This document shows, piece after piece, positions 416-54,094 of a DNA stretch of 64,000 bases (position 1 is its first letter; every line of letters begins with the position of its first letter). Below the pieces are notes generated by a model. It saw only the letters and a program-made list of their open reading frames with translations, had not been told where the DNA came from and did no database searches. A program made the position numbers and the translations under genes. Source of the stretch: Candidatus Methylomirabilota bacterium. GTDB taxonomy: Bacteria > Methylomirabilota > Methylomirabilia > Methylomirabilales > 2-02-FULL-66-22. The DNA lies in contig JACQVN010000009.1 of assembly GCA_016209735.1 (NCBI GenBank), forward strand, positions 30,381 to 94,380. Direction: 5' to 3'.

Positions 416-642
416 CTGGTTTTTGCGCTGAGCGCGCAAAAACCAAACTGGTGGGGCAAAGAACTTTTTGCACGGGGCTTCCGAACAGTCTCATCAAGGG
501 CACGCGTGATGGGAGGTGCCCCCTGCGATTCGGGTCGTGTTCCATTGTGCGTGAACCACGGGGGGACCTCCTTCTGGAATGGTCGGTGTTTACTCCCAGC
601 GAATCCCACAGGGGTTCCCTGAAGCCTTCGGCGAACACCAGG
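416..642 (+). mobile_element. MITE/PATE-like element, copy 1 (left-end hairpin GGTTTTTGCGC-N5-GCGCAAAAACC; right end degenerate)
   Basis: Aligns end to end with the reverse complement of 15537-15788 and with both ends of 33680-33818. It begins 25 nt after the REC gene stop. Confidence 0.7.
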
Positions 643-3266: not shown

Positions 3267-3290
3267 GGGCGGCCCTGTGTGGCCGCCCGG
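3263..3290 (+). repeat. GTAG-REP hairpin (GTAGGGGCGGCC-N6-GGCCGCCC), copy 1
   Basis: GTAG followed by the inverted repeat GGGCGGCC/GGCCGCCC. Its TAG is the stop codon of the upstream CDS. Confidence 0.8.
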
Positions 3291-3372
3291 CACAGGGCAC
3301 AGCGCACAGGGCACAGCGCACAGGGCACAGCGCACAGGGCACAGCGCACAGGGCACGGGGCACAGCGCACGG
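3290..3372 (+). repeat. Octamer tandem array (GCACAGSG)n
   Basis: About ten consecutive GCACAGGG/GCACAGCG units read directly. Confidence 0.9.
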
Positions 3373-3377
3373 GGTTG

Positions 3378-3408
3378 GGTGTAGGGGCGGCCCCATGTGG
3401 CCGCCCGG
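3378..3408 (+). repeat. GTAG-REP hairpin, copy 2
   Basis: GGTGTAGGGGCGGCCCCATGTGGCCGCCCGG. Confidence 0.85.
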
Positions 3409-3431
3409 CAGCAGGCAGAAGTCAGCGTTCG

Positions 3432-3462
3432 GGTGTAGGGGCGGCCCCATGTGGCCGCCCGG
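3432..3462 (+). repeat. GTAG-REP hairpin, copy 3
   Basis: Identical 31-mer to copy 2, in direct orientation 54 nt downstream. Confidence 0.85.
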
Positions 3463-3760
3463 CAGCAGGCTGGGGAACAGACTGTGGACCATGGACAATG
3501 GACAGCAGGGCGCGGTGAACGTGAAACGTGGAACGTTGAACGTGCGAAGGGCCCCGAACCCCCGAACCCGCCTGCGGCGGATCTCCGTCCCGCCACAGGC
3601 GGGACTCCGACCCGTACTGCCGTACCGTCGCACTCCCGAACCCGTTCCTGTTCCTGTATCGTCCTACCCCCGTACCCCCGTACGGTCTTTACCATGCGCT
3701 TTGCGCCATGCGCCTTGCGCTTTGCGCCACGCGCCACCTGTGGCGGGGGTGCGATAGGTG
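3463..3760. repeat. Composite spacer of short repeat modules
   Basis: Module order is GGACCAT units, AACGTGR units, a CCCGCC...GGCGGG hairpin, CCGTACC units, then CATGCGC/TTGCGCC units. The same order is seen at 6937-7215 and 34716-34810. Confidence 0.8.
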
Positions 3761-6340: not shown

Positions 6341-6958
6341 TTGCGCGTTGGACTGTTCGGCGGCCTCCTCGTCCTGCCGTGGGTATCTTTGCTCGAATCG
6401 AGCCTTCCGGCTCTCCCACCCGCTTTCCGGCAATCGCCGGCCATCCAAACAGCCATGCAGGCGATCACCCATCTCGGCCTCGGGTGGGTGGACATCGGCC
6501 TGTTCGTAGCCCTCCTGACTGCTGGCTGGTGGCGGCGGTGGCCGGAAGGTCGCAGGATCGGCCTGTACGGCGCGCTGGCGGTGTCCGGCGCGGGGCTTCT
6601 GGATCAGCTTCTCAAACAGTTCTCCTGCCGCGCACGTCCCAACGCAGCCGAAGCCGGTCTTTTCTTCGCCAAGTTTCCGTGTGTTTTCGATGGCTATGCC
6701 TATTCCTCTTTTCCGTCCGGTCATGCGACCACGGCCTTCGCAGCAGCCGCGTTCCTGGCGCTCTGGAGGCCCCGGCTGGCGATCCCGGCCTTCCTGCTGG
6801 CCGCGCTGGTCGCCCTGTCCCGCGTCTATCTCGGCGCGCACTTCCCGTCCGACGTCCTGGCGGGGGCGCTCCTGGGGACCAGCGCGGCCATGGCGGGATG
6901 GCGGTGGGTCGAGCGGAAGGGAGGAGGGGAGCAGAGAACGTTGAACGTGGAACGTTGA
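6341..6958 (+). CDS. PAP2-family phosphatase (type 2 phosphatidic acid / undecaprenyl-diphosphate phosphatase family)
   Basis: Has the PAP2 motifs SFPSGHAT and SRVYLGAHFPSDV plus multiple TM segments. The C-terminal residues and the stop are encoded by the AACGTG repeat. Confidence 0.8.
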   Translation: MRVGLFGGLLVLPWVSLLESSLPALPPAFRQSPAIQTAMQAITHLGLGWVDIGLFVALLTAGWWRRWPEGRRIGLYGALAVSGAGLLDQLLKQFSCRARPNAAEAGLFFAKFPCVFDGYAYSSFPSGHATTAFAAAAFLALWRPRLAIPAFLLAALVALSRVYLGAHFPSDVLAGALLGTSAAMAGWRWVERKGGGEQRTLNVER

Positions 6959-7419: not shown

Positions 7420-7583
7420 AAATCCCCCTAACCCCCCTTTACAAAAGGGGGGCGGAGGGGGGATTGCGAAAGGGGGGCGGAGGCCTGTGTGCGCCAAGCG
7501 AAGCGCCTGCCTGCCCCGCCCGCGGCGCAGGCAGATCGCACGCAGACAGGCGATGCAGACAGGCGGCAGGCAGGGGGGATTTC
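7420..7583. repeat. AATCCCCC...CCCCCTTT-N-AAAGGGGG...GGGGGATT palindrome carrying a nested CCTGCCTG/CAGGCAGG element (7484-7574)
   Basis: The right arm ...GCGGAGG / GGGGATTT is interrupted by about 90 nt. The same architecture occurs at 33535-33623. Confidence 0.75.
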
Positions 7584-7734
7584 GGGTGGTTGAGATGGTC
7601 TGAGCAACGAGCCTTTGCTTCCCACGGCTGCCGCAAGCGGTGACCGCCGGTCCAGCGATCGGTCTTGTCGTGCGGACGGGGGGAGTGGCTTTACCTGAAT
7701 CTTCCACCGCTGTCCGTTTTACCCCCCCAGATAG

Positions 7735-7939
7735 TGCAAAGATATCTTTCTACGGCGCTTTCGAGCAGTTCCACCGAGTGAACGCGTGGTGGGGCGCGAA
7801 ATTCGGGTCTCCTGCGGTCGCGCGTAACCGTCGGGGTTACCTGCTCTCGGGTTGGCCGTTGGTTGCTCCCGATCGATCTAACGGAGGTTCCCCGAGGTCT
7901 TTCACTCCTGATTTTTTGCGCGCTCAGCGCAAGAACCAG
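7735..7939 (+). mobile_element. MITE/PATE-like element, copy 4 (diverged; only the right-end hairpin is retained)
   Basis: Collinear similarity to the core of copy 1/2. Ends in TTTTTTGCGCGCTCAGCGCAAGAACCAG. Confidence 0.5.
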
Positions 7940-8010: not shown

Positions 8011-8547
8011 ATGTCCACGAAGGTTCTCTCACTGGCGGCGGGGATCCTCCTTCTGGCGGGTTGCGCGGGGATGGGGGCGGGAGGGAGCAGTAGCTCTGTC
8101 TTTGCCCCGTATCCTCCGCCGGGCATGGACCATCAAGTGGGCGCAGAACACGTCGAGCTGTTCTGGCGCTGCCTTCGGCCGGAGCCGGGACTGCTCAGGC
8201 TGGACGGGCTGGCGATGAATCGCAGTTCGCCACATCCGGTGCAATTCTTCAAGGCGGAGCTCGTCGGCGTGGATGCTGGTGAGCGGACACGCTCCTCCGG
8301 CCGAGCGGAGGCGCGGGACATCGTGATCCGCACCTACGAGGCGTCCCCCTTCGAGATCGTGCTCAGGGAGGGTGGGGACGAGGTGCGCTTTGACCTTTAC
8401 TACGATTACCAGGCTCAGATCCCGGATCATATTATCCTCTCTGCTGGTGCGCGGTTTCGCATGTTCGCTTACTATCAGCGCTACCTAGCGAGGGATGCCT
8501 GCAATCCCGCAGCGCACCGGTCAGGTCCCAGTTCGATCACGCAGTGA
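8011..8547 (+). CDS. Lipoprotein of unknown function
   Basis: MSTKVLSLAAGILLLAGC lipobox. A GGAGGG RBS lies 5 nt upstream of ATG 8011. The stop overlaps the ATG of the PAP2 fragment. Confidence 0.6.
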   Translation: MSTKVLSLAAGILLLAGCAGMGAGGSSSSVFAPYPPPGMDHQVGAEHVELFWRCLRPEPGLLRLDGLAMNRSSPHPVQFFKAELVGVDAGERTRSSGRAEARDIVIRTYEASPFEIVLREGGDEVRFDLYYDYQAQIPDHIILSAGARFRMFAYYQRYLARDACNPAAHRSGPSSITQ

Positions 8548-8804
8548 TGCAGGCGATCACCCGGCTCGGCCTCGGCTGGGTGGACATCGGCCTGTTCGTA
8601 GCCCTCCTGACCGCTGGCTGGTGTCGGCGGTGGGCGGAAGGTCGCCGGATCGGCCTGTATGACGCGCTGGCGGTGTCGGGCGCGGGGCTTCTCGATCAGC
8701 TTCTCAAACAGCTCTCCTGCCACGCGCGTCCCAGCGCGCCCGAAGCCGGTCTCTTCCTCGCCAAGTTCCCTTGCGTCTTCGATGGCTATGCCCATTCCTC
8801 GTGA
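8544..8804 (+). pseudogene. Truncated paralogous copy of the PAP2 gene N-terminal half (lacks the catalytic motifs)
   Basis: 8547-8800 is about 90% identical at the nucleotide level to 6456-6712. The reading frame stops just before the SGH motif. Confidence 0.65.
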
Positions 8805-9627: not shown

Positions 9628-11535
9628 TTGGCTGCTAAGCGCACGACCCTCATCCTGCTCGTCGTCTCGGGCACACTCTTCTTCACGCAACTGGGCGGGA
9701 CCGGCCTCTTTGACGCGGACGAGCCGGCCTACGCCCAGGCGGCGCGGGAGATGCTCGCACGCGGGGACTGGATCACGCCGACCTTCAACGGGGCCCCCCG
9801 CTTCGACAAGCCCGTCCTATTCTACTGGCTGATCATGGGAAGCTACGCGGGCTTCGGGGTGAGCGAGTTTGCCGTGCGCCTTTGGTCGGCGCTGGCCGGG
9901 ATGGCCCTGGTCCTGCTGACGGCCTGGGCGGCTCGGCGCTGGCTTCCGCCATCGGCGGACTTCTGGGCAGGCGTGGCCCTGGCCACCTGCTTTCTCACCG
10001 CGCTCCTGGCGCGGGCCGCGGTGACGGACATGCTCCTTGCCCTCTGCGTCACGGCAGCCATCCTGGCGGGAGTCGCGGCCCTGGAGGTGCCAGACCGCGC
10101 AGAGCGCATGGCGCACAGGGCACAGGGCACAGGGCATGGCGCACAGGGCATGGCGCACGGCGCAGAGCGCACGGCTTACGACGCACAGGGCACAGTGCTC
10201 GACGCACAGGGCACAGCGCTCGGCGCACAGCGCACGGCGCACGGTGCACAGCGCTCGGCGCGCGGCGCTGGAAGCTGGGCTCTCTTCGCCTGGGCCGCCA
10301 TGGCGTTGGCCGTCCTGGTGAAGGGCCCCATCGGTCTTGTGATCCCCGCGATCACCTTCGGCCTCTCCCTGCCGGCAACCCGGGAGGTCCGCTTCGGCCT
10401 CCGGCGGCTCGTCCCCTGGCAGGGTCTGTTGCTCTTCCTGTGTCTCACCTTGCCCTGGTACCTTCTGGTCCTCCGGGCCAACGGCTGGGCCTTCGTCGAG
10501 GGTTTCGTCATCAAGCACCATTTCACCAGGTACACGGGGGTGGTCTCCAGCCACGCGGGGCCGTTCTGGTTCTACCTTCCCGTGCTCCTGATCGGCTTCT
10601 TTCCGTGGAGCGGGTACCTGCCGTCGGCCGGCTGGCGGGCCTGGCAGATCCTGCGGCGGCGGAGGGCCGAGCGGCATGGAGATCGGTTGATCGTTGTCTG
10701 CGCCTGCTGGGCGGCGGCGGTGTTCGTCTTCTTCTCGCTGGCCGGGACCAAGCTTCCGAGCTACCTGTTCCCCGCCTTCCCCGCCCTCGCCCTGCTGGTT
10801 GCGGGGCTCGGAATTTCAAATGAAAAATGCAAAATGAAAAACCGGCCAACGGAACAGACGGTTGCCCGGTTTTCCATTCTCAATTTTTCGTTTTCCATTG
10901 ACCAGCCGCGCATCGACGCGCGCCTGGTTCGCCTGGCGCCGTGGCTCATCGGCGGCGTCGGCGCGGCGCTGGCCATCGGCTTCGCCCTGCTTCCGTGGAT
11001 CCTGGAATTGGCGCGACCGGCCGCCCGGGGGATCCTGGATGGAGTCGAGGCGCCCACCGCCCTGGCCTTCGGGCTGGCGGGGCTTCTGGGTGTGGGCACG
11101 ACTACAGGCCTTTGTGCGTCGGGCTGGCGGCGCCCGTCCATCCTGGCAGCCATGATGGTCGGAGTGATTCTGGCGGCCGCGCTGCTGGCGGCGCCCAAGG
11201 CGCATGCCATCTTGCAGGGTGCGCTCAGGGAGTTTAGCGACGATGCTCGCCGCCTGGTGCCGCCGGACGGCACGGTGGTCGCGTATGGACTGAATGCCCC
11301 AAGCATAGTATTCTACGCGGAACGCCGGGTTCTCCCGTTGGGGCCCGGCACCCCGGACGGTCTCGATCGGATCCAGCGCCTGCTCGCCGAAGGCCGGCCC
11401 ATCGTGGTCATCTCCCGCAGCGCGCACGCCCCGATCCTGGATCGCGTTCCCGGGCTGATTCGCGGGAAAGCCCGTAGCGGGTTCGCGATATATTGGCCTC
11501 GGGCGGCTAGTCAGATTTCCGCTGCCCCACGGTAA
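9628..11535 (+). CDS. GT39/ArnT-like (PMT_2) membrane glycosyltransferase with two in-frame repeat insertions
   Basis: N-terminal LFDADEPAYAQAAREM...GDWITPTFNG.PRFDKPVLFYWL is characteristic of ArnT/PMT-family enzymes, and the protein has many TM segments. At 635 aa it is about 85 aa longer than expected, matching the two inserts. Confidence 0.8.
   Translation: MAAKRTTLILLVVSGTLFFTQLGGTGLFDADEPAYAQAAREMLARGDWITPTFNGAPRFDKPVLFYWLIMGSYAGFGVSEFAVRLWSALAGMALVLLTAWAARRWLPPSADFWAGVALATCFLTALLARAAVTDMLLALCVTAAILAGVAALEVPDRAERMAHRAQGTGHGAQGMAHGAERTAYDAQGTVLDAQGTALGAQRTAHGAQRSARGAGSWALFAWAAMALAVLVKGPIGLVIPAITFGLSLPATREVRFGLRRLVPWQGLLLFLCLTLPWYLLVLRANGWAFVEGFVIKHHFTRYTGVVSSHAGPFWFYLPVLLIGFFPWSGYLPSAGWRAWQILRRRRAERHGDRLIVVCACWAAAVFVFFSLAGTKLPSYLFPAFPALALLVAGLGISNEKCKMKNRPTEQTVARFSILNFSFSIDQPRIDARLVRLAPWLIGGVGAALAIGFALLPWILELARPAARGILDGVEAPTALAFGLAGLLGVGTTTGLCASGWRRPSILAAMMVGVILAAALLAAPKAHAILQGALREFSDDARRLVPPDGTVVAYGLNAPSIVFYAERRVLPLGPGTPDGLDRIQRLLAEGRPIVVISRSAHAPILDRVPGLIRGKARSGFAIYWPRAASQISAAPR
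10096..10265 (+). repeat. (GCACAGSG)n-type array inside the ArnT-like CDS, in frame
   Basis: Encodes AHRAQGTGHGAQGMAHGAERTAYDAQGTVLDAQGTALGAQRTAHGAQRSARG. The units are the same as in the intergenic arrays at 3290-3372 and 34444-34650. Confidence 0.85.
10812..10900 (+). repeat. AT-rich AAATGCAAAA-type hairpin inside the ArnT-like CDS, in frame
   Basis: aaatgaaaaatgcaaaatgaaaaaccgg ... ccggttttccattctcaatttttcgttttccatt. Same family as 36141-36230 and 38596-38688. Confidence 0.85.
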
Positions 11536-12964: not shown

Positions 12965-13148
12965 CGGTTCACGGTGCGGCGGTTCACGGTGCGGCGGTTG
13001 GGGCTCCAGCGGTTCACGGTGCGGCGGTTCAAGCCTCGAAGTGTCAACCTTGAACCTTGAACCTCGAACCGTCAGCCTCGAACCCTGAACCTCGAACCTT
13101 CAACCGTGAACCGTCAACCTCGAACCTTGAACCGGAAACCTTGAACCC
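12965..13148. repeat. (GGTTCACGGTGCGGC)n followed by (GAACCTYG)n arrays
   Basis: Three 15-mers, then about 12 GAACC-containing octamers, running up to the lepA start. Confidence 0.85.
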
Positions 13149-13152
13149 CCGT

Positions 13153-14955
13153 ATGGATCACATCCGCAACTTTTCCATCATCGCCCACATCGACCATGGC
13201 AAATCCACGCTGGCGGACCGCCTGCTGGAACAGACGGGGACCCTCAACTCCCGCCAGATGGCGGACCAGGTCCTGGACAGCATGGATCTGGAGCGGGAGC
13301 GGGGGATCACCATCAAGGCCAAGGCGGTCCGCCTGCACCACAGAGGATCCGACGGCCAGGAATACCTGCTGAACCTGATCGACACCCCGGGTCACGTGGA
13401 CTTCAGCTACGAGGTCTCCCGAAGTCTCTCGGCGTGCGAGGGGGCGCTGCTAGTGGTGGACGCCGCCCAGGGGGTGGAGGCGCAGACGCTGGCCAACGTC
13501 CACCTGGCCATGCAGAATAACCTGGCCATCCTCCCAGTCATCAACAAGATCGATCTCCCCAGCGCCGACGTGGAGCGGGTCAAGGGTCAACTGGAGGAGA
13601 TCCTGGCCCTAGACAGCCGGGAGGCCGTCCTGGTCAGCGCCAAGTACGGCACGGGCACGGCGGAGACGCTGGAGGCCATCGTCCGGCAGATCCCGCCGCC
13701 GAGGGGCTCCGTGGCCGCGCCGCTCAAGGGGCTGATCTTCGACTCCTGGTTCGACAGCTACCAGGGGGTCATCGTCTACGTGCGTCTCTTCGACGGCGTG
13801 GTGGCGCCGGGGATGCGAATCCTGTTGATGTCCAGCGGCGCCGTATACGAGGTGACGCAGGTCGGGGTATTCACGCCGGCGATGCGGCCGGTGGATCGCC
13901 TGTCGGCCGGCGAGGTGGGCTACGTCATCGCGGGGATCCGGGACGTCCGGCAGAGCCGGGTGGGCGACACTATCACCGAGGCGAATCGCGCCACGGCGCG
14001 ACCGCTGCCCGGGTTTCGGGAGGTGCTGCCCATGGTCTTCGCCGGCCTCTATCCGGTGGAGAGCGCCGACTATCTGAGCCTCAAGGGGGCCCTGGAGAAA
14101 CTCCAACTCAACGACGCCTCCTTCTCCTTCGAACCCGAGACGTCCCTGGCCCTGGGGTTCGGCTTCCGCTGCGGCTTCCTGGGCCTCCTGCACCTGGAGA
14201 TTGTCCAGGAGCGGCTGGAGCGGGAGTTCGGCCTGACGCTCCTCACCACGGCGCCCACCGTGGTCTACCGGGTCACCACGACGGACGGAAGGGTGCTGGA
14301 GGTGGAAAACCCCAGCAAGCTTCCGCCGCCCCAGGAGATGCTTCGCATCGAGGAGCCTTTCATCACGGCCTCCATCATGTCCCCGACCGAGTACGTCGGG
14401 CCGATCCTCTCCCTCTGCCAGGAGAAACGGGGGGTGCACAAGGGGATCGAATACCTGAAGGACGCCCGGGTCGTCGTCGCGTACGAGCTGCCCCTCAACG
14501 AAATCGTGCTGGATTTCTACGACCGGCTGAAGTCGGTGAGCCGCGGCTATGCCTCTTTCGACTACGACTTCCTGGAGTACCGGGAGAGCCCCCTGGTCAA
14601 GCTGGACATTCTGGTGAACGGGGAGCCGGTGGACGCCCTCTCCTTCATCGTCCATCACCATCACTCCCAGGCCCGCGGCCGTCTCCTGGCCGAGAAGATG
14701 CGGGAATTGATTCCGCGCCAGCTCTTTGAGGTGGTCATCCAGGCGGCGATCGGCAGCAAGGTGATTGCGCGCGAGCGCATCGCCCCGCTGCGCAAGGCGG
14801 TCACGGCCAAGTGCTACGGAGGGGACATCACGCGCAAGCGGAAACTTCTGGAGAAGCAGGCCGCGGGCAAACGGCGGATGAAACAGGTGGGTCGCGTCGA
14901 GATCCCCCAGGAAGCCTTCATGGCCGTCCTCGCGGTGGGGAAAGAGTCAAGTTAG
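13153..14955 (+). CDS. lepA: Translation elongation factor 4 (LepA)
   Basis: [25 protein letters not shown]..., [13 protein letters not shown] and the C-terminal LepA_C region. The annotated upstream 32 codons are encoded by the tandem repeat. Confidence 0.95.
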
Positions 14956-15092
14956 AATGCAAAACCGACAACCGACAAGTTAAAATGCAAAACGGACAAC
15001 CGGCAAGTTAAAATGCAAAACCGGCCTGCCTGCGCCGCGGGCGCGGCAGGCAGGCAACCGACAAGTTAAAACCGACAAGGGACGACCGGCGA
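14956..15092 (+). repeat. Left arm of an AT-rich foldback (AAAACCGACAACCGACAAGTTAAAA units, with an embedded CCTGCCTGCGCCGCGGGCGCGGCAGGCAGG palindrome)
   Basis: Starts at the lepA stop codon. A 25-nt identity to the reverse complement of 15787-15837. Confidence 0.85.
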
Positions 15093-15486
15093 ATGGTTGG
15101 ACGACAGCCGCTCGATGAGCAAGACAGGAAACGCGGGGACGAGCTTGCCGAGCGCTTGCTCGATTTCTCCGATCAAAATCATCGCCTTGGCGTCCCGCCT
15201 TCCCGGTGATCCAGTTGGCCGGCACATCTCCAACCAGATGGTCAGGGCCGGGACATCGGTCGGCGCTCACTACGAGGAAGCGCGGGGAGCCGAAAGCCGA
15301 GCCGATTTCGTCCACAAGCTTGGCGTGGCACTGAAAGAATGCCGGGAGGCGCGGTACTGGCTCAGGGTTGTCCACCGCGCCAAGATGATTCCGGACGATC
15401 TTCCCGGGGCCCTCATCTTGAAGGCCAACGAGCTGTGCGCGATCCTCGGACAGTGTATCCTCACCGCGAAGTCTCGACAGGACTGA
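15093..15486 (+). pseudogene. Four-helix-bundle protein (23S rRNA IVS protein / Avd-like, PF05635 type) with an apparent 1-nt frameshift near 15168-15176
   Basis: Frame A from ATG 15093 gives ...DELAERLLDFSDQ. The frame of ORF 15097 gives IIALASRLPGDPVGRHISNQMVRAGTSVGAHYEEARGAESRADFVHKLGVALKECREARYWL. Together they reproduce the family pattern ER.IDF..RII.L...LP. The shift lies in gatcaaaatcatc. Confidence 0.65.
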
Positions 15487-15536
15487 AGGTTCGCAGTGTG
15501 CCTGTGACTCCATCGCGCAGTCGGATATCGGTTTTA

Positions 15537-15788
15537 CCTGGTTTTTGTGCTGGCGCGCAAAAACCATAACTGAAAGGCATCAGGGAACCCCTCCGGGATT
15601 GGCTGGGAGGAAACAACGACCATCCCGGAAGGAGGTAACCCCGAGGGGTACGCGCCTTGGAACACGGGCCGAATCGCAGGGGCGACCTCTCATCACGCGT
15701 TCCCTTGATGAGACTCTACGGAAGCCCCGTGCAAAGAATTCTTTGCTCCACCAAGTTTGGTTTTTGCGCACCCAGCGCAAAAACCAGG
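15537..15788 (-). mobile_element. MITE/PATE-like element, copy 2 (full length, hairpins at both ends)
   Basis: CCTGGTTTTTGTGCtggcGCGCAAAAACC ... TGGTTTTTGCGCacccaGCGCAAAAACCAGG. The core is the reverse complement of 445-630. Confidence 0.75.
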
Positions 15789-15850
15789 TTTTAACTTGTC
15801 GGTTGTCGGTTTTGACTTTTAACTTGTCCGTTGTCTGTTTTTCGTTGACG
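15785..15850 (-). repeat. Right arm of the AT-rich foldback
   Basis: ggttttaacttgtcggttgtcggttttgacttttaacttgtccgttgtctg is the reverse complement of the left-arm units. Confidence 0.85.
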
Positions 15851-15883
15851 GGTGCGTTCAGGAAGCAGAGGATAAGCACGGAC

Positions 15884-16552
15884 ATGGCACCGAAGACAAA
15901 GGAAAACGAAGTAGCGGTTGGGACGCGGCCGGTGGCCACGCCGAAGTCGGTCCTCCGGGAGTACGCGGAGGCGCTGATCATCGCGGTCCTGCTGGCCTTG
16001 GTGATCCGGACCTTCGTGGTCCAGGCGTTCAAGATCCCCTCTGGGTCCATGCTCCCCACCCTCCAGATCGGCGATCACATCCTGGTCAACAAGTTCCTGT
16101 ATCACTTCCGCCCCATTCAGAGGGGCGACATCATCGTCTTCAAATTCCCGCAGGACGAGAGCCGAGATTTCATCAAGCGGGTGATCGGTCTGCCGGGGGA
16201 AACGCTGGAGGTGCGCGGGACGCAGATCCTCATCAACGGCCAGCCCGTGAAAGAGCCCTACGCGGTGTTCAGCGATGGAGCCTTGGGATCATCCGGCGAA
16301 CGGGACCGGATGGGGCCCATCACGATTCCGCCGAACCGACTGTTCATGATGGGGGACAACCGGGATCACAGCATGGACAGCAGGTACTGGGGTCTCTTGG
16401 ATGAGGCCAAGGTCAAAGGCAAGGCCTTCCTGATCTACTTCTCGGTGCGGAGTGATGATATTCCCACCGACTCCTCGCTGGGGAGCGTCGCCTACGTCCT
16501 TGTGCATCCATCCTTGATCCGCTGGGGACGGTTCGGCCACCTGGTGGAATGA
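15884..16552 (+). CDS. lepB: Signal peptidase I
   Basis: IPSGSMLPTL (catalytic Ser), GDHILVNKF, KRVIGLPGE (catalytic Lys box) and GDNRDHSMDSRYWG. Confidence 0.9.
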   Translation: MAPKTKENEVAVGTRPVATPKSVLREYAEALIIAVLLALVIRTFVVQAFKIPSGSMLPTLQIGDHILVNKFLYHFRPIQRGDIIVFKFPQDESRDFIKRVIGLPGETLEVRGTQILINGQPVKEPYAVFSDGALGSSGERDRMGPITIPPNRLFMMGDNRDHSMDSRYWGLLDEAKVKGKAFLIYFSVRSDDIPTDSSLGSVAYVLVHPSLIRWGRFGHLVE

Positions 16553-20811: not shown

Positions 20812-20841
20812 CAGCGGGCACAGGGCACAGGGCAGTGGTCG

Positions 20842-20872
20842 GGTGTAGGGGCGGCCCTATGTGGCCGACCGG
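20842..20872 (+). repeat. GTAG-REP hairpin, copy 4
   Basis: GGTGTAGGGGCGGCCCTATGTGGCCGACCGG. Confidence 0.8.
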
Positions 20873-20910
20873 GCAGAGGTCCAAGGTCAGAGGGCACAGG
20901 GCAGGGATTG

Positions 20911-20942
20911 GGTGTAGGGGCGGCCCCATGTGGCCGGCCCGG
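20911..20942 (+). repeat. GTAG-REP hairpin, copy 5
   Basis: GGTGTAGGGGCGGCCCCATGTGGCCGGCCCGG. Confidence 0.8.
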
Positions 20943-21329
20943 CGGGCGAGCTGGCAGCTGGCAACGGGCCGAGCCGCAGCGGGCAGGGGAACAGACCATG
21001 GACCGTGGACCATGGACCGTGGACCATGGACGATGGACCGTGGACCATGGACCACGGGAGAGCAGGGGAGCAGAGGAGCGGGGGGCCGAGGGGCGTAGCG
21101 CACAGGGCAGCGGGCAGAAAGCAGAAGGCAGCGGGCGACAGGTGATCCGGAGGCGGTGACGCGTAGCACGTAACGCGTAAGACGTAAAGCGTGAAACGTG
21201 AAACGTAATACGTAAAACGTAAATCGTAAAACGTGAGAGGCAGCGATGCTTCCTGCGGGTGTTCGTTCGCTGCCTGCTGCCCGCTGTATCGTGCTGCCGG
21301 CTGCCTGCTGATTTCCGCTGGGAGAACGG

Positions 21330-27182: not shown

Positions 27183-28333
27183 AGGTGCGGGGCTATTTCT
27201 CCCGGAGGGCGGGCTTCGCTGCCGATCGCGTGACCCTGCCGTCGACCCCTCCGCCCACCGTGGAAGAGGCCCTCGGCAGCGGCGCGTTTCTCCTGGAGCA
27301 GGCCGGCATCGAGAGCGCTCGCCTGGATGCCGAGTGCCTGTTGGGGCATGCCCTCAGCCTGCCGCGCTGGAGGCTGGCCGCGGCCCCGCAGCGCCGCCTC
27401 AGCCCCGAGGCGTTCGTGGCCTACCTCAGCCTGCTGGAGCGGCGCGAGCGGCGGGAGCCCCTGGCCTACCTGGTGGGTGGGCGGGAGTTCTGGTCGTTGC
27501 CCCTGGCGGTGAGCCGGAATGTCCTGGTGCCGCGTCCGGAGACCGAAACCGTGGTGGAAGTCGCCCTGGCGGTCTGCTACGGGACAGACCCGCTGGGGCT
27601 CGAGCCGAGCGCCGAGCGCCGAGCGCCAAGCGCCAAGCGCCAAGCGCCGAGCGCCGAGCGCCGAGCGCCGGGGACCGGGGACGGCGGGCGGCCGTCACCC
27701 TCGAACCGCGAATCCCGCCTGGCGGCGGGATCTGCGTCCCGCCGAGGCGGGACTTCGACCGCGAACCTGGAACCTCGAACTTGGAACCTGAAACCTGAAA
27801 CCTCGAATCTCTTGATCGTGGACCTGTGCACGGGGAGCGGGGCCATCGCCATTGCCCTGGCCCGCGAGCTCCCCTCGGCCACGGTGCTGGCCTCCGATAT
27901 CTCCTGGCGGGCGCTCCGCGTGGCGCGCGCCAACGCCGCCGAGCAAGGGGTTGCGGAGCGGATCACGTTCCTGCGGGGGAGCGTCTGGCGGGCGGTGGCC
28001 GGGGCCCTGGGGGACCGGCAGGCAGACGTGGTGGCCGCCAATCCTCCCTACATTCCCAGCGGCCGGATCCCGGCCTTGATGCCCGAGGTGCGCTGGGAGC
28101 CGCGGCGGGCCCTGGACGGCGGCCCCGACGGCCTGGCGATCATCCGGGACATCGTGGCGGGGGCCCCGCAGCACCTCCGGCCGGGCGGCGTGCTGCTCCT
28201 GGAGGTCGGGGCAGATCAGGGGAACGCGGTCACCGCGATGCTGGGGATCGCGGGCGCGTTCGAGGCCTGGCGCGTCGTGCCGGACCTGGCAGGGCTTGAC
28301 CGCGTCGTCGTGGCGCGACGACGCGGCAAGTGA
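27179..28333 (+). CDS. prmC: Release-factor glutamine N5-methyltransferase PrmC, with a roughly 70-aa in-frame repeat insertion
   Basis: LAYL.GGREFW...L.V...VLVPRPETE, then the insertion, then [15 protein letters not shown] and ANPPY (NPPY motif). ATGA overlap with prfA. Confidence 0.85.
27601..27808 (+). repeat. Three repeat modules inside prmC: (GCCGAGC/GCCAAGC)n, a CCCGCC..GGCGGG hairpin, and (GAACCTSG)n
   Basis: Units identical to the intergenic families at 37551-37590, 3575-3615 and 13040-13148. Confidence 0.85.
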
Positions 28334-28680
28334 AAAGTTAAAACCGACAACCGACAAGTTAAAACCGACCTGCCGGCGCCGCTGGCGCGGCAGGCAGGCA
28401 ACCGACAAGTAAAGCCGACAACCGACGAGGCAAGAGTGACTAAAGACAAGGCAAGAGGCAAGATGGACAACCGATCCTGCGGTCCGCAAGGCAAACCGAT
28501 GAATGGATTGCTGTCGTAGATGCTCCCGCCTTCGCCGGACTGCTCTTACATTTTAACTTGTCGGTTGTCGGTTTTGCATTTTAACTTGTCCACCCGGGGC
28601 GGATCGGCTTTTCATTTTGCCTTGTCGGTTGTCGGTTTTAACTTTTGACTTGTCGGTAGTCCGTTTTGCATTCCGCCGGA
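28331..28680. repeat. AT-rich foldback filling the prmC-murA spacer
   Basis: 28331-28359 (gtgaaaagttaaaaccgacaaccgacaag) pairs with 28621-28649 (cttgtcggttgtcggttttaacttttgac) at 28 of 29 positions. Further inverted units lie inside, plus a CCTGCC..GGCAGG palindrome. Confidence 0.85.
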
Positions 28681-28687
28681 GGCGTGA

Positions 28688-29944
28688 GTGGATCAGCTAG
28701 TCATCCGCGGCGGGCGGCCCCTTGCCGGGACAGTGACGGCCAGCGGCGCAAAAAATGCGGCGCTGCCTTTGATGGCGTCCTGTCTCCTCACGTCCGAACC
28801 GCTCAGGCTGGAGAACGTTCCGCGCCTGATGGATGTGCGAACCATGGCCAGGCTGCTGCGCCATGTGGGGGCGGAGGTGACCGAGGAAGGGCCCGCCAGC
28901 CTGCGCCTGCAGGCTGAAGCCCCGGGCTGCCCGGAGGCGCCCTACGATCTGGTCAAGACCATGCGGGCCTCCGTGCTGGTCCTGGGGCCTCTGGTGGCAC
29001 GCCTGGGGCGGGCCCGGGTCTCGCTCCCGGGCGGCTGCGCCATCGGGCCCCGGCCCATCAATTTACACCTCATGGGTTTGGAGCGGCTGGGCGCGCGCAT
29101 CCGCCTTAGTCACGGCTACGTCGAGGCGGAGACGGACGGGCTGACGGGGGCGCGCATTGCCTTCGATCTCCAGACGGTCACGGGCACCGAGAATCTGATG
29201 ATGGCGGCAGCGCTGGCCCGCGGCACGACGACCCTGGAGCACGCGGCCTGCGAGCCGGAGGTGGCCGACCTGGCAAGCCTGCTCAACGCCATGGGAGCGA
29301 AGATCGAGGGGGCCGGCTCCGCCACCATCACGATCCACGGCGTCCCCGCGTTGCGGGGCGCGACGCACCGGACCATCCCCGACCGGATCGAGACGGGCAC
29401 CCTGGCCGTCGCCGCGGCCATCACCGGCGGCACGGTGACGATCGAGGAGTGCCGGCCCGTGCACCTGGAGGCGGTGCTGGTCAAACTGGAGGAGAGCGGC
29501 GCCGCCCTCACCACCGGCCCGGGGACGCTCACGGTGCGAGGGGCGAGCCGGTCCCGGGCGGTGAACGTGCGCACGCAGCCGTTCCCCGGATTCGCCACCG
29601 ACATGCAGGCCCAGATGATGGCCCTCATGGCCGTGGCCTCCGGGCGGAGCGTCATCACCGAGGCGGTCTTCGAGAATCGGTTCATGCACGTCAACGAACT
29701 GTTGCGCATGGGGGCGGACATCACGACCGCCGGCAACACGGCCGTAGTGCAAGGGGTGCCGGGGCTCCTGGGCGCCCCGGTGATGGCCACGGACCTTCGC
29801 GCCAGCGCCTCCTTGGTGCTGGCCGCCCTGGCGGCGCGCGGGACCACCACGGTCTCTCGAATCTACCACCTGGACCGCGGCTACGAGGCCCTCGAGGAGA
29901 AGCTGCGCCTCCTGGGCGCAGATATCGAGCGGGTGAAAGCGTGA
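28688..29944 (+). CDS. murA: UDP-N-acetylglucosamine 1-carboxyvinyltransferase
   Basis: L.IRGG.PL.G.V..SGAKNAALP, LPGGCAIG.RPI (active-site Cys), and the C-terminal IYHLDRGYE. Confidence 0.95.
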   Translation: MDQLVIRGGRPLAGTVTASGAKNAALPLMASCLLTSEPLRLENVPRLMDVRTMARLLRHVGAEVTEEGPASLRLQAEAPGCPEAPYDLVKTMRASVLVLGPLVARLGRARVSLPGGCAIGPRPINLHLMGLERLGARIRLSHGYVEAETDGLTGARIAFDLQTVTGTENLMMAAALARGTTTLEHAACEPEVADLASLLNAMGAKIEGAGSATITIHGVPALRGATHRTIPDRIETGTLAVAAAITGGTVTIEECRPVHLEAVLVKLEESGAALTTGPGTLTVRGASRSRAVNVRTQPFPGFATDMQAQMMALMAVASGRSVITEAVFENRFMHVNELLRMGADITTAGNTAVVQGVPGLLGAPVMATDLRASASLVLAALAARGTTTVSRIYHLDRGYEALEEKLRLLGADIERVKA

Positions 29945-30428
29945 CATGTTAAAATGCAAAACCGACAACGGACAAGTCAAAAGTTAAAACCGACAACCGA
30001 CAAGTGAAAAATTGAGGCCGCAACCGACAACGGACAAGTGAAAAGTTAAAGCCGAGAATGGACAGCGGTGTCGTGTCTCCCTGCAGAATTGCCCGACATA
30101 TCCAGGGCGTATCCTCCCGGCGTCATTCCCGCGCAAGCGGGAATCCAGATTTGGGCCATCCCCGAGTGAGGCATTCGGAGACGGGTGGGCTTCCGCTCCC
30201 CGATAGGGGCTTTCTGGGACAGGCTTCACGGGAGCGATGAGAGTTTTCATGACCGCACTCGTGCAAACGCAGAGATGTTGCCGGATATATCGAGGAGTGC
30301 TGCTATCAGACACCAGTCCTACTCCTTCGGCTGGTATCACTTTTGACTTGTCGGTTGTCGGTTTGAACTTGTCGGTTCGCACTTGTCGGATTTGACTTGT
30401 CGGTTGTCGGTTTTGCATTTTAACTTGA
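29945..30428. repeat. AT-rich foldback filling the murA-hisG spacer, with a unique core of about 270 bp
   Basis: 29948-29978 (gttaaaatgcaaaaccgacaacggacaagtc) pairs with 30394-30424 at 30 of 31 positions. The core contains a GTCATTCCCGCGCAAGCGGGAATCCAG hairpin. Confidence 0.85.
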
Positions 30429-30437
30429 GTGCTGTCC

Positions 30438-33679: not shown

Positions 33680-33818
33680 CCTGGTTTTTGCGCTCGGCGC
33701 GCAAGAACCAAACAGGGTGGAGCAGAGAATTTTGGTCGGTGTTCACTGCCGGCGAGTCCCCCAAGGGTTCCCTGATGTGTTTCAATTATGGTTTTTGCGT
33801 GCCAGCGCAAAAACCAGG
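33680..33818 (+). mobile_element. MITE/PATE-like element, copy 3 (internal-deletion derivative, both terminal hairpins intact)
   Basis: Shares the first 55 nt and the last 70 nt with copy 1/2 and lacks about 115 nt of core. Its right end ...AAAACCAGG runs into AGGTAGC-ATG of hisB. Confidence 0.75.
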
Positions 33819-34422: not shown

Positions 34423-34531
34423 GGATTTGCGATTGCCGATTGGGGCACAGCGCAAAGCGCACGGAGCACAGCGCACAGCGCGCGGGGCACAGAGCACAGG
34501 GCAGCGATTACGGGGCAGCGAGCAGCTGGCA

Positions 34532-34562
34532 GGTGTAGGGGCGGCCCTGTGTGGCCGCCCGA
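34532..34562 (+). repeat. GTAG-REP hairpin, copy 6
   Basis: GGTGTAGGGGCGGCCCTGTGTGGCCGCCCGA. Confidence 0.8.
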
Positions 34563-34949
34563 CACCGGGCGCGGGGGACGGGGCAGCGGTTAGCTGGCAG
34601 CGGGTAGCGGGCACAGCGCACGGGGCACGGCGCACAGCGCACAGGGCATAGGGTAGCTGGCAGAAGTCAGGGGTCAGTAGTCAGCGGGCAGCGGGCGGTG
34701 GAGCGGGGGGAACGGACCATGGACCATGGATAGCAGGGCGCGTTGAACGTGGAACGTGGAACGTTGAACGTTTAACGTGCGAAGCAGGCCGTACCGTTCT
34801 TATCATGAGTGGGCGGGCATGAAGCCCACCCCTACGCAACCACAACCGATCACGGCCCACGGGAGTCGTCGTAGGGGAGGAGTGTATCCCCTCCCGACGG
34901 GTTGCGCGTTCATGGCGTAGGGATGTGGGTGGAAGCCGGCAGCGGGCCA

Positions 34950-34981
34950 GGTGTAGGGGCGGCCCCATGTGGCCGGCCCGG
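34950..34981 (+). repeat. GTAG-REP hairpin, copy 7
   Basis: GGTGTAGGGGCGGCCCCATGTGGCCGGCCCGG. Confidence 0.8.
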
Positions 34982-35267
34982 CACAGGGCACGGGGCAGCG
35001 GGCAGGAGGGCGAGCCGCAGCGAGATCCCGCCGGGAGGCGGGACAGCGGGCAGCCGGCAGGAAGGCAGGGGGCAATCGGGTAACCCATGATCCGAAGGCG
35101 GCGATGCGTAACGCGTAACACGTAACACGTGAAACGTGAAGCGGTAAAACGGGAAAGGCGGAGATACTGCCTGCGGTTATTCGTTCGCTGCCTGTTGCGA
35201 GCTGCCTGTTGCCTGCTGGAACGGATGCCCCTCTTGCGACTCTGGTTGTTTTCGTGCGAGGTATTTG

Positions 35268-36230: not shown

Positions 36231-36332
36231 CATGGGTGGCGTCCTGGCGGTTTCGCCGTGTTGAATCGGAGTCAGCGCCAATACTGTTCACATAGCTCGC
36301 ATAGCGTCGGACACTGGCGCTTGCGTTCGAGC

Positions 36333-36380
36333 AAATCCCCCTGTCCCCCCCTTTGTCAAAGGGGGGCGAGGGGGGATTTC
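36333..36380. repeat. AAATCCCCC...CCCCCTTTGTCAAAGGGGGG...GGGGGGATTT palindrome, uninterrupted copy
   Basis: Compare 7420-7583, 33535-33623 and 40400-40446. Confidence 0.75.
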
Positions 36381-37983: not shown

Positions 37984-38089
37984 AGACCATGGACCATGGA
38001 CGATGGACCATGGACGGGGGACCGCGGACCATGGGACCCGCGGTTAATCCGATGTGCTCCTATGGTCCATCGTCCATGGTCCATGGTCG
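37984..38089. repeat. Long hairpin whose arms are (GGACCAT)n tandem repeats
   Basis: 37984-38013 (agaccatggaccatggacgatggaccatgg) matches the reverse complement of 38060-38089 at 28 of 30 positions. The loop is about 46 nt. It lies directly after the hisF stop. Confidence 0.85.
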
Positions 38090-40215: not shown

Positions 40216-40399
40216 GTGGCGGTGAGGCAGGGGGGATGGCCGCCGGCAGCGACCGGGACCCATCGGGACGGCGGCGCGAGCAGTCGTGGCAAGGGACTCG
40301 ATGCACGGGTCCCTTGCTTTTTTCTTCTGGAACACCGCGCGGGGCAAGGCCCCCGACATTTCACCACGGAGGCACGGAGGCCACGGTGCGATGCTTTGG

Positions 40400-40446
40400 A
40401 AATTCCCCCTCCGCCCCCTTTGACAAAGGGGGGGACGGGGGGATTT
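40400..40446. repeat. AATTCCCCC...CCCCCTTTGACAAAGGGGG...GGGGGGATTT palindrome
   Basis: Same family as 36333-36380. Confidence 0.7.
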
Positions 40447-40521
40447 GGTGGACAGACTCCTTCGGAGAGGCGCACCACCATTGTCCAACGTGATGTGAAC
40501 GGTACTCGGGTTACGTAGCAC

Positions 40522-46984: not shown

Positions 46985-47069
46985 ACCAAGGACCAAGGAC
47001 CAAGGACCAAGGACCAAGAACAGGGGCACCTTCGGGTCCGTCTCCATTGGGATTTGGTCATTGGTCATT
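46985..47069. repeat. (CAAGGAC)n and (TTGGTCA)n heptamers after the rpoD stop, forming an imperfect foldback
   Basis: caaggaccaaggaccaaggaccaaggaccaag ... gatttggtcattggtcattg. Confidence 0.7.
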
Positions 47070-47088
47070 GAGAATTCGCACAGCGATT

Positions 47089-47165
47089 GGGCCCATAGCT
47101 CAGTTGGTTAGAGCCACCGGCTCATAACCGGACGGTCGCAGGTTCGAGTCCTGCTGGGCCCACCA
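47089..47165 (+). tRNA. tRNA with CAT anticodon (elongator Met, or Ile2 if lysidine-modified), CCA encoded
   Basis: Hand-folded cloverleaf: acceptor GGGCCCA/TGGGCCC, D arm GCTC-AGTTGGTTA-GAGC, anticodon arm CCGG-CTCATAA-CCGG, T arm GCAGG-TTCGAGT-CCTGC, then A-CCA. Confidence 0.9.
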
Positions 47166-47179
47166 CCAAAATCCCCAAG

Positions 47180-47214
47180 AAAAGCCCGTCTGACGCCATG
47201 TTAGACGGGCTTTT
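47180..47214 (+). terminator. Rho-independent terminator just after the tRNA
   Basis: AAAAGCCCGTCT-gacgccatgtt-AGACGGGCTTTT. Confidence 0.8.
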
Positions 47215-47421
47215 GCATTCAGGAGAAGTGGGGTGCCGTTATGCGCGTTCTTGCACTTTCTTGCCGTTTTTCTGTAGCGAACCGGCACCTGTACCGGCAC
47301 TTGAGGCCATACCCCTGGGGAGTATACATGGGGGCACCTACCCCCCCGGCAAGGCCAGGGGGGCATAGGCAGGGACAGGTGGTCTTCGGTATCGAAAGGC
47401 TGAAACGCCTGGAGGTGTAAC

Positions 47422-47658
47422 GTGCGGCTATTCGGGCGGGTTGCCATCATGCGGTATCTCGGCTACAGCGGGACTTGCCATCACACCTGGGCGAGCATCC
47501 GCCAGCGGTTCTCCGGCGCGATCTACCGTGACGTGGACAATGGCCGGGTGTGGGCAGAGGGGGAACATCTAGATGCTTTGCGGTCTGCCGGCGATCCTGC
47601 GGCGGCCCTGCGGCGACTCCAGCGCCAAGTTGAGCGGTTCGAGACGCGGAGATCGTGA
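47422..47658 (+). CDS. Hypothetical small protein (island-borne)
   Basis: 78-aa ORF with a GTG start. No recognisable motif. Confidence 0.3.
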   Translation: MRLFGRVAIMRYLGYSGTCHHTWASIRQRFSGAIYRDVDNGRVWAEGEHLDALRSAGDPAAALRRLQRQVERFETRRS

Positions 47659-47832
47659 CGGGGACCTGTTTACGCCGTCTTGCGGACTATCGAAACGCCA
47701 CGGGCTTGCAAGCATCGCAGACAAAGTGTAGCGTGTGAAGCACTCCCCTGGCCTAGGGTAGCTCCCGAAAAGCCGCTTCCCGAGCGGCCTGGCCGGGGAA
47801 CCTCTCGGGGCTCTGCATCAGGGAGGAGCATC

Positions 47833-48453
47833 ATGCCACGTCGCCCTGACCGGCCGCTGCCCCCGCCACACTTGGTTTTCCCCGCGCTTTTTGGTGAAGC
47901 TGCTCAAGATGAGCGGCCGATGGATGCAGGCACGCGTGAAAGATTCTCCGACGCCTGCATAGAGGGCCTGCTGTCCCGCCTGGAAGCCAAGGATGACAAG
48001 GAGAAATTCCTCCGGGAGCTGATACCTGAGTTGCAACGGAGATTTGAACGGGGAATCACCGGGGGGGCGGTTTACCGTATTCTTCGACACGCAAAGCCCG
48101 CCCGCAAGAACGAACGCCCTAGCTGCAAGCCTGGCCTGCTACTCTATCACTACGCCCTAGCGGAGAAATTGCTGAGGGGCATTCTCGTTTCAAATCGGCA
48201 AGCAGCAAAACGCGCAGACGCTCTAGTGAAATACGCCGATGCACTCAATACACGCCTGAATGAGGAGTATCGCTGCGACGACTGCGGACGCAAAACCATT
48301 CCTCCAGACGACTTCAGAGAATGGGCTCTCAGGAAACATACAGAGCGGGAGATAATCCTGAAGCTCTTGGCCTACCACCACCACGGCTTTTCTCCCGACA
48401 GCCTGCGCCGGCTACTCGACAAGGCCGCTCAACAGAATCGGCCTCTCCGCTGA
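47833..48453 (+). CDS. Hypothetical protein (island-borne)
   Basis: ATG preceded by GGGAGGAG. 206 aa, with a CDDCGRK motif. GC is lower than the chromosome in its 3' half. Confidence 0.4.
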   Translation: MPRRPDRPLPPPHLVFPALFGEAAQDERPMDAGTRERFSDACIEGLLSRLEAKDDKEKFLRELIPELQRRFERGITGGAVYRILRHAKPARKNERPSCKPGLLLYHYALAEKLLRGILVSNRQAAKRADALVKYADALNTRLNEEYRCDDCGRKTIPPDDFREWALRKHTEREIILKLLAYHHHGFSPDSLRRLLDKAAQQNRPLR

Positions 48454-48582
48454 CAATCTCGCTACTTATTTGATACGCGAAGCTTCCTGAAAAAGTCGCC
48501 AAACCTGGTTTGTGCGCCACGTACCCTTCGTGCAGGCACCATTTGCAGATTATCACGGTTTGCCGCATGGAGGAGACAAGCG

Positions 48583-48783
48583 ATGGATTACATCACGGTT
48601 GACGAGGCTGCTGAACTGACGGGATGGACACGGGCCACATTGTATTCGAAAGCGAGCAGAAGGCAGATCCCGAGCTACCGGATAGGACGGTCCTTGCGTT
48701 TTCGTCGGCAGGACATGCTAAACCTGTTCAGGCCCCGCCCCGCCCTGCGCCCGCTGGCCGACAAGGAAGGGGGCGAGTCATGA
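48583..48783 (+). CDS. Excisionase-family / MerR-like helix-turn-helix DNA-binding protein
   Basis: ITVDEAAELTGWTRATLYSKASRRQIPSYRIGRSLRFRRQDM matches the excisionase-type HTH pattern. GGAGGAG RBS. The stop overlaps the next start. Confidence 0.7.
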   Translation: MDYITVDEAAELTGWTRATLYSKASRRQIPSYRIGRSLRFRRQDMLNLFRPRPALRPLADKEGGES

Positions 48784-50843: not shown

Positions 50844-51255
50844 GCTACCAACCTACCAACCTGTAAGTGTGGTTGCCAACCGGGGTTCCGGGGTTGGCAG
50901 GTTGGCAACCATATCTCCGTTGCAAGCCCTGGTGGACCGATTGGAGAATGCGCCACCACCGGAAAGAGGATCGGGCGACCCCCTGGCCCTTCTCCTGGTG
51001 ACCCGACTTGACCATTTGGCCGAGCCGCTGGCGGTGGTGTCGTCTGTCCTGCGTGAGACCATATACCTGGTGGCGAATGATCGGCAGGCAGCGGCGGTCA
51101 GGGCGAAGGGCGGGACCCCGTACACCCCGCCCGAGGTGGCGATCCTGCGGGACCTGTACGCGGCGGTACGCCCCGAGGTGTGGGCCGAACGGTTGCGGCT
51201 GATCCACCAGGCCAAGCGCACATTTGATGGCGACGTGCGCGGGAGCGCGGCATGA
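50833..51255 (+). CDS. Hypothetical protein (start uncertain; the 5' end overlaps a cluster of CCAACC iterons)
   Basis: 140-aa ORF with no motif recognised. Confidence 0.3.
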   Translation: MGNRLPTYQPVSVVANRGSGVGRLATISPLQALVDRLENAPPPERGSGDPLALLLVTRLDHLAEPLAVVSSVLRETIYLVANDRQAAAVRAKGGTPYTPPEVAILRDLYAAVRPEVWAERLRLIHQAKRTFDGDVRGSAA

Positions 51256-51301
51256 GAAGCGAGGCGCGTCCACCCCCTCCGGGAGCGAAATGGTGAGCAA
51301 C

Positions 51302-52363: not shown

Positions 52364-52519
52364 GGTCGCACCTCTCGGTGGATGGGAGTGAAGATGCGGC
52401 AGGTAATTCGGACCACGGTTACGGCCGGGACGTTATCAGGAGGCGGATGCCATGTCAAATATCCCCCTGGGGCAAGTTACCCCTTGACAGCGCAATAGAG
52501 AGTGCTTATGATAATAATC

Positions 52520-54040: not shown

Positions 54041-54094
54041 AAAACGGGGCGGCTGTAAATGCTTGCCATTGCGACGGTTCAAGAGATAGACCAT

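Follow-up and report, generated by a model that had tools for sequence, protein, structure and literature searches.

The 250-bp repeat that lies between lepB and the open reading frame (ORF) of a 23S_rRNA_IVP four-helix-bundle protein very probably belongs to a family of non-autonomous MITEs that is specific to NC10/Methylomirabilota. Members of the family are short (near-full copies measure 202–254 bp), have no coding capacity, end in terminal inverted repeats (TIRs), are flanked by a duplication of fixed length, and occur in multiple copies at unrelated loci. Together, the inverted-repeat ends and the 7-bp duplication constitute the signature of DDE-type cut-and-paste or copy-and-paste transposition. 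A transposase supplied in trans would bind both TIRs and excise or copy the element, which would then be joined to target DNA whose strands had been cut 7 bp apart; repair of this staggered cut would leave the 7-bp direct repeats. A repeat family specific to the Methylomirabilota, which are nitrite-dependent methane oxidisers, is thereby documented, and it is one that can fragment assemblies and cause errors in gene calling.

The window, by which we mean the whole 64-kb stretch of DNA that was analysed, contains four copies of the element (Table 1), as a preliminary description of this DNA had stated with nearly the same coordinates. The copies were established by reading the four places, by a repeat search and by a four-way alignment. 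The complete copy, c2, consists of a left TIR hairpin, a core of ~190 nt and a right TIR hairpin. Copy c1 is located directly downstream of a response-regulator gene, and its right hairpin lacks the 5′ arm. Copy c3 sits directly upstream of the hisB ribosome-binding site and ATG (33826), and its flanks, GGGGTAC and GAGGTAG, match at 5 of 7 positions. The diverged copy c4, with 60–71% identity to the other three, is an old copy. The hairpin pattern GGTTTTTGCGC-N5-GCGCAAAAACC was matched four times in the window at up to three mismatches, compared to 0.00 matches expected, and the two remaining window hairpins have loops of 4 nt, not 5. The same hairpin with a 5-nt loop had been described at both ends of the element; the hairpin is indeed present at both, but the loop measures 4 or 5 nt, and the lower hairpin of c2 (15540-15565) combines a 4-nt loop with a single T.G mismatch.

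Table 1. Positions of the element copies, their ends and other repeats and features in the 64-kb window
Feature	Position	Strand	Details
Copy c2, complete 250-bp MITE	15538-15787	-	nhmmer 269 bits, profile positions 1-249
c2 left TIR	15755-15787	-	outer end CTGG; hairpin GGTTTTTGCGC-ACCCA-GCGCAAAAACC (+ strand of window 15759-15785)
c2 right TIR	15538-15570	-	hairpin GGTTTTTGTGC-TGGC-GCGCAAAAACC, one T.G mismatch
c2 target-site duplication, lower copy	15531-15537		GTTTTAC, 6/7 same as upper copy
c2 target-site duplication, upper copy	15788-15794		GTTTTAA
Copy c1	416-641	+	left TIR hairpin intact, core complete, right TIR reduced to GCGAACACCAG
Copy c3	33681-33817	+	two TIR hairpins, core deletion of ~115 nt
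Copy c4	~7695-7939	+	right TIR hairpin recognisable, left TIR degenerate (CTGAATCTTCCACC...)
End pair as it reads across an element			CTGGTTTTTGCGC...GCGCAAAAACCAG
Heptamer arrays	3289-3374, 10104-10268, 13046-13147, 20994-21054, 21168-21234, 27604-27670, 34445-34503, 37985-38034, 46985-47018, 47054-47070		~40 more
Inverted array pairs	14948-15091 / 15789-15857; 28314-28377 / 28546-28673; 29943-30064 / 30341-30430		
~59-nt repeat	3352-3464, 20816-20943, 34506-34564, 34924-34982		
Probable integrated island	47089-54140		
Island, intact tRNA	47089-47162		
Island, int-alpA RNA	47746-47810		51.7 bits
Island, Prim-Pol/PriCT/DUF3987 protein	48624-50843		
Island, tyrosine integrase	52772-54040		

Copies beyond the window were collected with two hairpin scans. 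The first, run on one-genome-per-species contigs, used a loose pattern, and most of its matches were hairpins of other phyla with no relation to the element; the matches listed also included nine loci from NC10/Methylomirabilota MAGs. A tighter pattern that included the CTGG terminus returned at least 120 metagenome contigs. Since both scans gave lower bounds, the copy set is a sample. An nhmmer profile search of all loci collected identified at least 18 near-full copies of 202–254 bp with pairwise identities of 60–97%, together with dozens of copies that are truncated or carry internal deletions; at least ~70 hairpins in these loci have no recognisable partner and are referred to as solo hairpins. 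All copies in the loci collected are intergenic, and the family is confined to NC10/Methylomirabilota as far as sampled. The designation as MITE-like, that is, short, non-coding, multicopy, intergenic and with defined termini, was therefore appropriate. Our literature searches found no paper on MITEs in Methylomirabilis, and the query for MITEs with a 7-bp duplication matched only papers on arachnid mites.

The ends of the element are TIRs of ~33 nt each, with the form CTGGTTTTTGCGC-loop-GCGCAAAAACCA[A/T], and each TIR is itself palindromic with a stem of 11–13 bp. When read from the outside in, all ends, whether left or right, can be aligned as members of a single family with the shared loop consensus TGRGC. 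Because this alignment includes the loop, the right end is an inverted copy of the left. The element termini read CTGG...CCAG, and 149 of 163 hairpins in the loci collected have exactly one such outer CTGG/CCAG side. To score the duplication, we compared the heptamers that directly adjoin CTGG and CCAG on their outer sides. Flanking direct repeats were identical at 7 of 7 positions in eight elements (L007, L101, L105, L129, L155, L198, L224 and L214) and at 6 of 7 in another eight (c2, L095, L111, L167, L171, L211, L210 and L218), compared to a chance expectation for 6 or more of 7 among ~35 elements of 0.05, or ~0.34–0.35 if target bias is allowed for. The duplicated heptamers differ between elements (GTCATAC, GTGGCAC, GAGGGAT, GTAGTCT, GTCCTCC and others). 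As the non-consensus bases at positions 6 and 7 are duplicated too, for example in GAGGGAT, GTAGTCT and GTCCTCC, the pattern cannot be explained by longer TIRs next to a duplication of fewer than 7 bp. Duplication identity is no longer recognisable in about half of the two-ended elements, which we assume reflects old age or recombination between copies. The logo of 154 outer flanks is dominated by C at -1 (80%), T at -6 (67%) and A at -2 (55%) and reads G/C-T-N-N-N-A-C beside CTGG, giving a palindromic GTNNNAC-like target consensus. Such a palindromic preference is as expected of a symmetric transposase complex.

Movement of the element is visible in the comparison of the copies in L224 and L129, which are 96% identical, have unrelated flanks and carry different duplications (GTACGAC vs GTGGCAC); typical identity between copies is ~78%. 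At the c2 locus, the lepA-lepB spacer of two related genomes is 170 nt long and contains neither the element nor the four-helix-bundle gene, with a GTTCAAC heptamer at the place of GTTTTAA in the window. The LepB proteins of these nearest available relatives are 77–81% identical to that of the window. Exact-protein look-ups of the window LepB, HisB and response regulator matched no record, so this empty-site comparison was made with relatives ~80% identical instead of strain-level pairs. The insertion polymorphism at lepA-lepB is thus one seen between relatives that are only ~80% identical. Insertion polymorphisms of this kind could serve for strain tracking.

Orthologous sites also show how copies decay: L112 retains 157 nt where L170 has 55 nt, and the 88 nt of L136 correspond to a solo hairpin of 34 nt in L169. 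The short inverted doublets L007, L095, L111 and L167 are still flanked by the 7-bp duplication, and the single hairpin L218 bears both outer ends as well as a 7-bp duplication. Since the duplication is kept in the doublets and in L218, the solo and doublet hairpins are remnants of the element and do not represent an independent repeat. The body decays neutrally after insertion and is often lost by internal deletion, which leaves hairpin doublets, single hairpins with both outer ends, or solo hairpins. A variant family of ~85 nt (L150:1452, L195:3662, L197:285 and L200:2099) was also observed, in which one standard TIR hairpin is followed by AAAAATTCCTTGCAC..CGGCAAGGTCAA.CAGAGGGGGTGCAAAATTCAGG and a degenerate, non-hairpin right end.

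Neither the window nor the 226 loci listed contain an autonomous element or transposase with the same ends. Convergent TIR pairs 420–6000 bp apart in the loci collected, with or without matching 7-mers, enclose no transposase. The recurrent ORF families of these loci are housekeeping paralogues only (SDR, histidine kinase and parts of ABC transporters), with no tnpA, tnpB or iscB among them. Clustering the inner flanks of solo TIRs revealed no common inner sequence, and the same was true of inner sequences at contig ends. A search for outer-arm-only matches in the loci collected returned none of note, and a scan of viral contigs yielded nothing. The window ORFs that we scanned encode a response regulator, a DUF4258 protein, the 23S_rRNA_IVP four-helix-bundle protein, LepB, HisB, a Prim-Pol protein and a tyrosine integrase. 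As no parent was found, we infer a DDE mechanism only from the TIR and duplication signature.

The Correia elements of Neisseria are an example of bacterial MITEs. MITEs are treated as non-autonomous IS derivatives (PMC3852290). The family described here resembles DDE-derived bacterial MITEs in its length of ~250 bp, its lack of coding sequence, its TIRs, fixed-length duplication, copy number and intergenic location, and its internal-deletion derivatives, and it is presumably mobilised in trans as they are. It differs from them in that its TIR is a palindrome in which compensated changes preserve base pairing, in its 7-bp duplication with a GTNNNAC preference, in having no known parent IS, and in its confinement to NC10 as far as sampled. 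Judged by sequence features, the 5′-CT termini, the 7-bp duplication and the symmetric target may point, weakly, to IS4-like DDE enzymes. IS4-family transposases are DDE enzymes with a YREK motif, and the target consensus of IS10 is likewise symmetric. Duplications in the IS4 family measure 7–8 bp for ISPepr1, 8–9 bp for IS50 and 9 bp for IS10 (PMC2266710), and the element shares the 5′-CT termini of these subgroups and has a duplication within or near their range. Its TIR matches the ISPepr1 end consensus YT-AA-YTT---A at only 5 of the 8 specified positions, and ISPepr1 prefers AT-rich targets. We therefore regard the likeness to IS4 as a possible lead and not as an assignment. The element opens no new class of system; what is mildly unusual is the combination of palindromic, covarying TIRs with long-lived hairpin remnants.

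The terminal hairpin is the only constrained part of the element. Among 70 distinct TIR hairpins, compensated double changes were found in 6 of the 14 stem pairs (14 cells), whereas shuffles gave 1.1 pairs and 1.2 cells, and the observed level was reached in none of 500. This alignment includes six hairpins added by hand, without which there are 7 compensated cells in 5 pairs, compared to ~1 expected. At the stem position that our search pattern left free, we counted C-G 126, C-A 12, T-G 2 and T-A 3 times (Fisher p = 0.008). The pairing also changes in place at orthologous loci, where stem position 2 differs on both arms and reads GA...TC in L112 and GC...GC in L136. Such compensated substitutions, found even in situ, indicate that the hairpin arms pair with themselves at some stage. 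In L211 and L187 a variant right TIR is combined with a consensus left TIR, and because hairpin changes are local to one end of these elements, they cannot be put down to a variant transposase with which the ends co-evolved.

The pairing would be kept either by selection, for end recognition or as a REP-like RNA hairpin, or by templated quasi-palindrome correction during replication; the REP-like option concerns intercistronic and 3′ regions. A hairpin adjacent to a stop codon was retained in two orthologous comparisons in which the flanks are only ~75% identical, and this persistence hints at exaptation or templated repair. We give a low probability to a further reading, which has two forms. 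In one, the hairpins may be maintained as self-paired single strands that persist as REP-like modules once the element itself is gone, for instance as RNA hairpins behind stop codons or in intercistronic gaps, where they would shield or punctuate transcripts; in the other, the transposase may recognise folded or cruciform ends and nonetheless insert with a 7-bp stagger. We know of no bacterial IS family that combines folded or cruciform end recognition with 7-bp staggered insertion. REP-mediated mRNA stabilisation is established for E. coli REPs, and by analogy a role as RNA 3′-end hairpins is possible for the hairpins of the element.

The element resembles REP, BIME and REPIN sequences in having palindromic units of ~30 nt, alone or paired in inverted orientation, in the DNA between genes and between cistrons. 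Some of these units persist across species. It is nevertheless very unlikely that the hairpin is a repeat spread by a RAYT (Y1) transposase and that the 250-bp unit is merely two inverted REPs enclosing a spacer by chance. In favor of this reading, hairpins are found alone (at least ~70 solos), as the close inverted doublets listed above and around a body, and they are intergenic, often situated directly behind a stop codon or ahead of a ribosome-binding site, and conserved at orthologous sites. The 7-bp duplications, however, flank the doublets and the single hairpin L218 as well, solo hairpins share the outer-flank target logo, and wherever orthologues are available the solos are deletion remnants of longer elements; the units originate as termini of such an element. 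A conserved tetranucleotide of the GTAG type is lacking, and neither the loci collected nor the window revealed a RAYT. REP/REPIN sequences spread without target duplication, through a RAYT gene that REPs themselves flank.

The interior of the element is not a conserved RNA structure, and the core is neutral. The preliminary description had read one core helix as showing compensatory changes and a second as keeping its stem, and had proposed covariation across more copies as a check. For an alignment of 18 copies, RNAalifold predicts a core fold of -15.8 kcal/mol, in which the covariation term amounts to +0.13. In the consensus-derived structure of 85 pairs, 86.8% of cells are paired compared to 86.6% in shuffles, double changes affect 6 pairs (5.8 in shuffles), and the covariation score is 0.102 in both, so that the core lies at the shuffle level. 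The departures from consensus Watson-Crick pairing comprise G-T 52, A-C 52, other mismatches 86 and compensated changes 5. Equal numbers of G-T and A-C departures leave no trace of the strand-specific wobble tolerance that had been claimed. The base changes described for the first helix (TCTCATCA/TGATGAGA, .../TGATGGGA and TTCCACCG/TGGTGGGG) do exist, but they are not compensatory beyond chance, as the two helices together contain 2 double changes compared to 1.6 in shuffles (18 copies). The T-A to C-G double change in c4 is likewise real, yet at chance level. The GCAAAG/CTTTGC stem, described as kept, is lost in c4 (CTTTCT), L105, L078, L225 and L153. The proposed function as a base-paired single strand thus holds for the terminal hairpins, with their compensated changes, and fails for the core. 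This provides a worked example of how compensatory changes seen in a few copies vanish once enough copies are compared.

We consider it very unlikely that the core is a structured ncRNA gene or cis-regulatory RNA, duplicated or carried along with its helices under selection. That the consensus folds into several helices with 86.8% of cells paired, the single double change in c4 and the fold of c1, which is somewhat better than its shuffles (z = -2.5), would suit such an RNA. These points are outweighed by the covariation values given above, in which only 5 departures are compensated, and by the loss of helix halves, which are deleted in several copies, and of the core itself, which is often missing inside otherwise intact elements. 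The opposite strand folds equally well: z is -6.8 and -8.0 for the two strands of c2, a stability that comes mostly from TIR-TIR pairing, and -2.5 and -3.0 for those of c1. Body orientation relative to the downstream gene is unbiased (15 same, 13 opposite). Within the element we found no promoter-like site, and terminator-like sites occurred at chance level only. Searching Rfam 15 over the window gave no match to the element at the gathering score, and searches with c2 and c1 returned noise only up to E = 10, in agreement with the earlier remark that the element was not recognised as any known RNA family.

Hairpins at both ends had also led to the proposal that the element has the layout of an IS200/IS605-derived PATE, in which subterminal hairpins are recognised by a Y1 (HUH) TnpA. 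On this reading the hairpins would be bound as single-stranded DNA, and the body might be an omega or guide-RNA scaffold for TnpB/IscB. Like PATEs, the element is a small non-autonomous repeat with a hairpin at each end, the covarying stems would suit recognition of folded single strands, and whole copies have stable folds. Transposition by the Y1 enzymes of IS200/IS605 produces no target duplication, involves non-inverted ends and takes place 3′ of a fixed tetra- or pentanucleotide. PATEs accordingly have no inverted-repeat ends, no duplication and a fixed short motif, and the element is the opposite on all three counts: its ends are inverted copies of each other, loop included, instead of same-strand LE and RE hairpins, 7-bp target-site duplications that vary in sequence adjoin it on both sides, and its target is the degenerate palindrome GTNNNAC. 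Because Y1/HUH transposition makes neither 7-bp duplications nor inverted ends, these features contradict a PATE origin and refute the proposed layout. Furthermore, tnpA, tnpB and iscB are absent from the recurrent locus ORFs and from the window ORFs scanned, the core lacks covariation and has no match in Rfam, whose omega-RNA-type families were included in the search, and the two strands of c2 are equally stable. A PATE origin is consequently highly improbable.

Next to no chance is left for the reading, which we rejected, that the element is a small-protein gene or a translatable insertion of the kind represented by the Rickettsia palindromic elements. In 13 of 18 copies one or more frames are free of stop codons from end to end (in 12 on the strand opposite to c1), and that of c2 is in frame with lepB. 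A frame is also open in 24% of c2 shuffles, however, and the frames are not conserved: the copies (lengths 250, 251, 253 and 254) differ by indels whose sizes are not divisible by three, which puts their translations out of step with one another. Start codons and ribosome-binding sites are lacking, the copies are all intergenic, and internal deletions are common. The stop-free frame of c2 does present an annotation hazard, as it runs into lepB and creates a spurious 335-aa ORF (15545-16552); the real start of LepB (222 aa, Peptidase_S26) is at 15884.

The intergenic DNA of the window is densely filled with tandem 7-nt units, whose arrays often have super-periods of 14 or 21 nt (Table 1). Their signal covers ~2.5% of window positions; in the remaining NC10 loci the figure is 0.3%. 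They show no association with the MITE. We rejected them as preferred targets or excision footprints, since a period-7 signal was present in only 1 of 153 TIR outer flanks. The arrays recall the STRR repeats of cyanobacteria. They also resemble the TAACTGA repeats of Beggiatoaceae (PMC4679880) and the GGACCGG elements of Geobacter (PMC2700814). Arrays of the AACCGAC/AAGTTAA type form inverted pairs that bracket short segments, and one such pair, between lepA and lepB, brackets the 23S_rRNA_IVP four-helix-bundle ORF (15097-15486) together with c2. In the relative L227 the inverted array pair is present and the ORF and MITE are absent; L228 has neither the array pair nor the ORF and MITE.

Several further features were observed. 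The segment 47089-54140 is a probable integrated, tRNA-linked island, whose other attachment site is probably marked by a repeat of the tRNA 3′ half at 54076-54140. A second palindromic repeat family of ~54 nt (AAATCCCCCT...CCCCCCTTTGTCAAAGGGGGG...AGGGGGGATTT) has three copies in the window (7420-7472, 36327-36380 and 40394-40452), and a ~59-nt repeat containing GGGTGTAGGGGCGGCCCCATGTGGCCGCCCGGC has seven copies, always beside heptamer arrays. The region of c4 is bracketed by a 259-nt direct repeat, 90% identical and 2.1 kb apart (6450-6708 and 8542-8800). Among the loci collected, L014, L015, L019, L020, L030, L040, L048, L067 and L076 contain a nearly identical repeat unit of ~70 nt (…GATTGGCGTGGTTTTTGCGTSATCTTCTCGCAAAAACCATGACAAAAGG…) every 1–5 kb. 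This unit was found in two MAGs, one of Treponemataceae and one of Oscillospiraceae, whose accession prefixes are similar (CAXXHO and CAXXEM), and it could be a shared mobile element or an artefact of binning or contamination.
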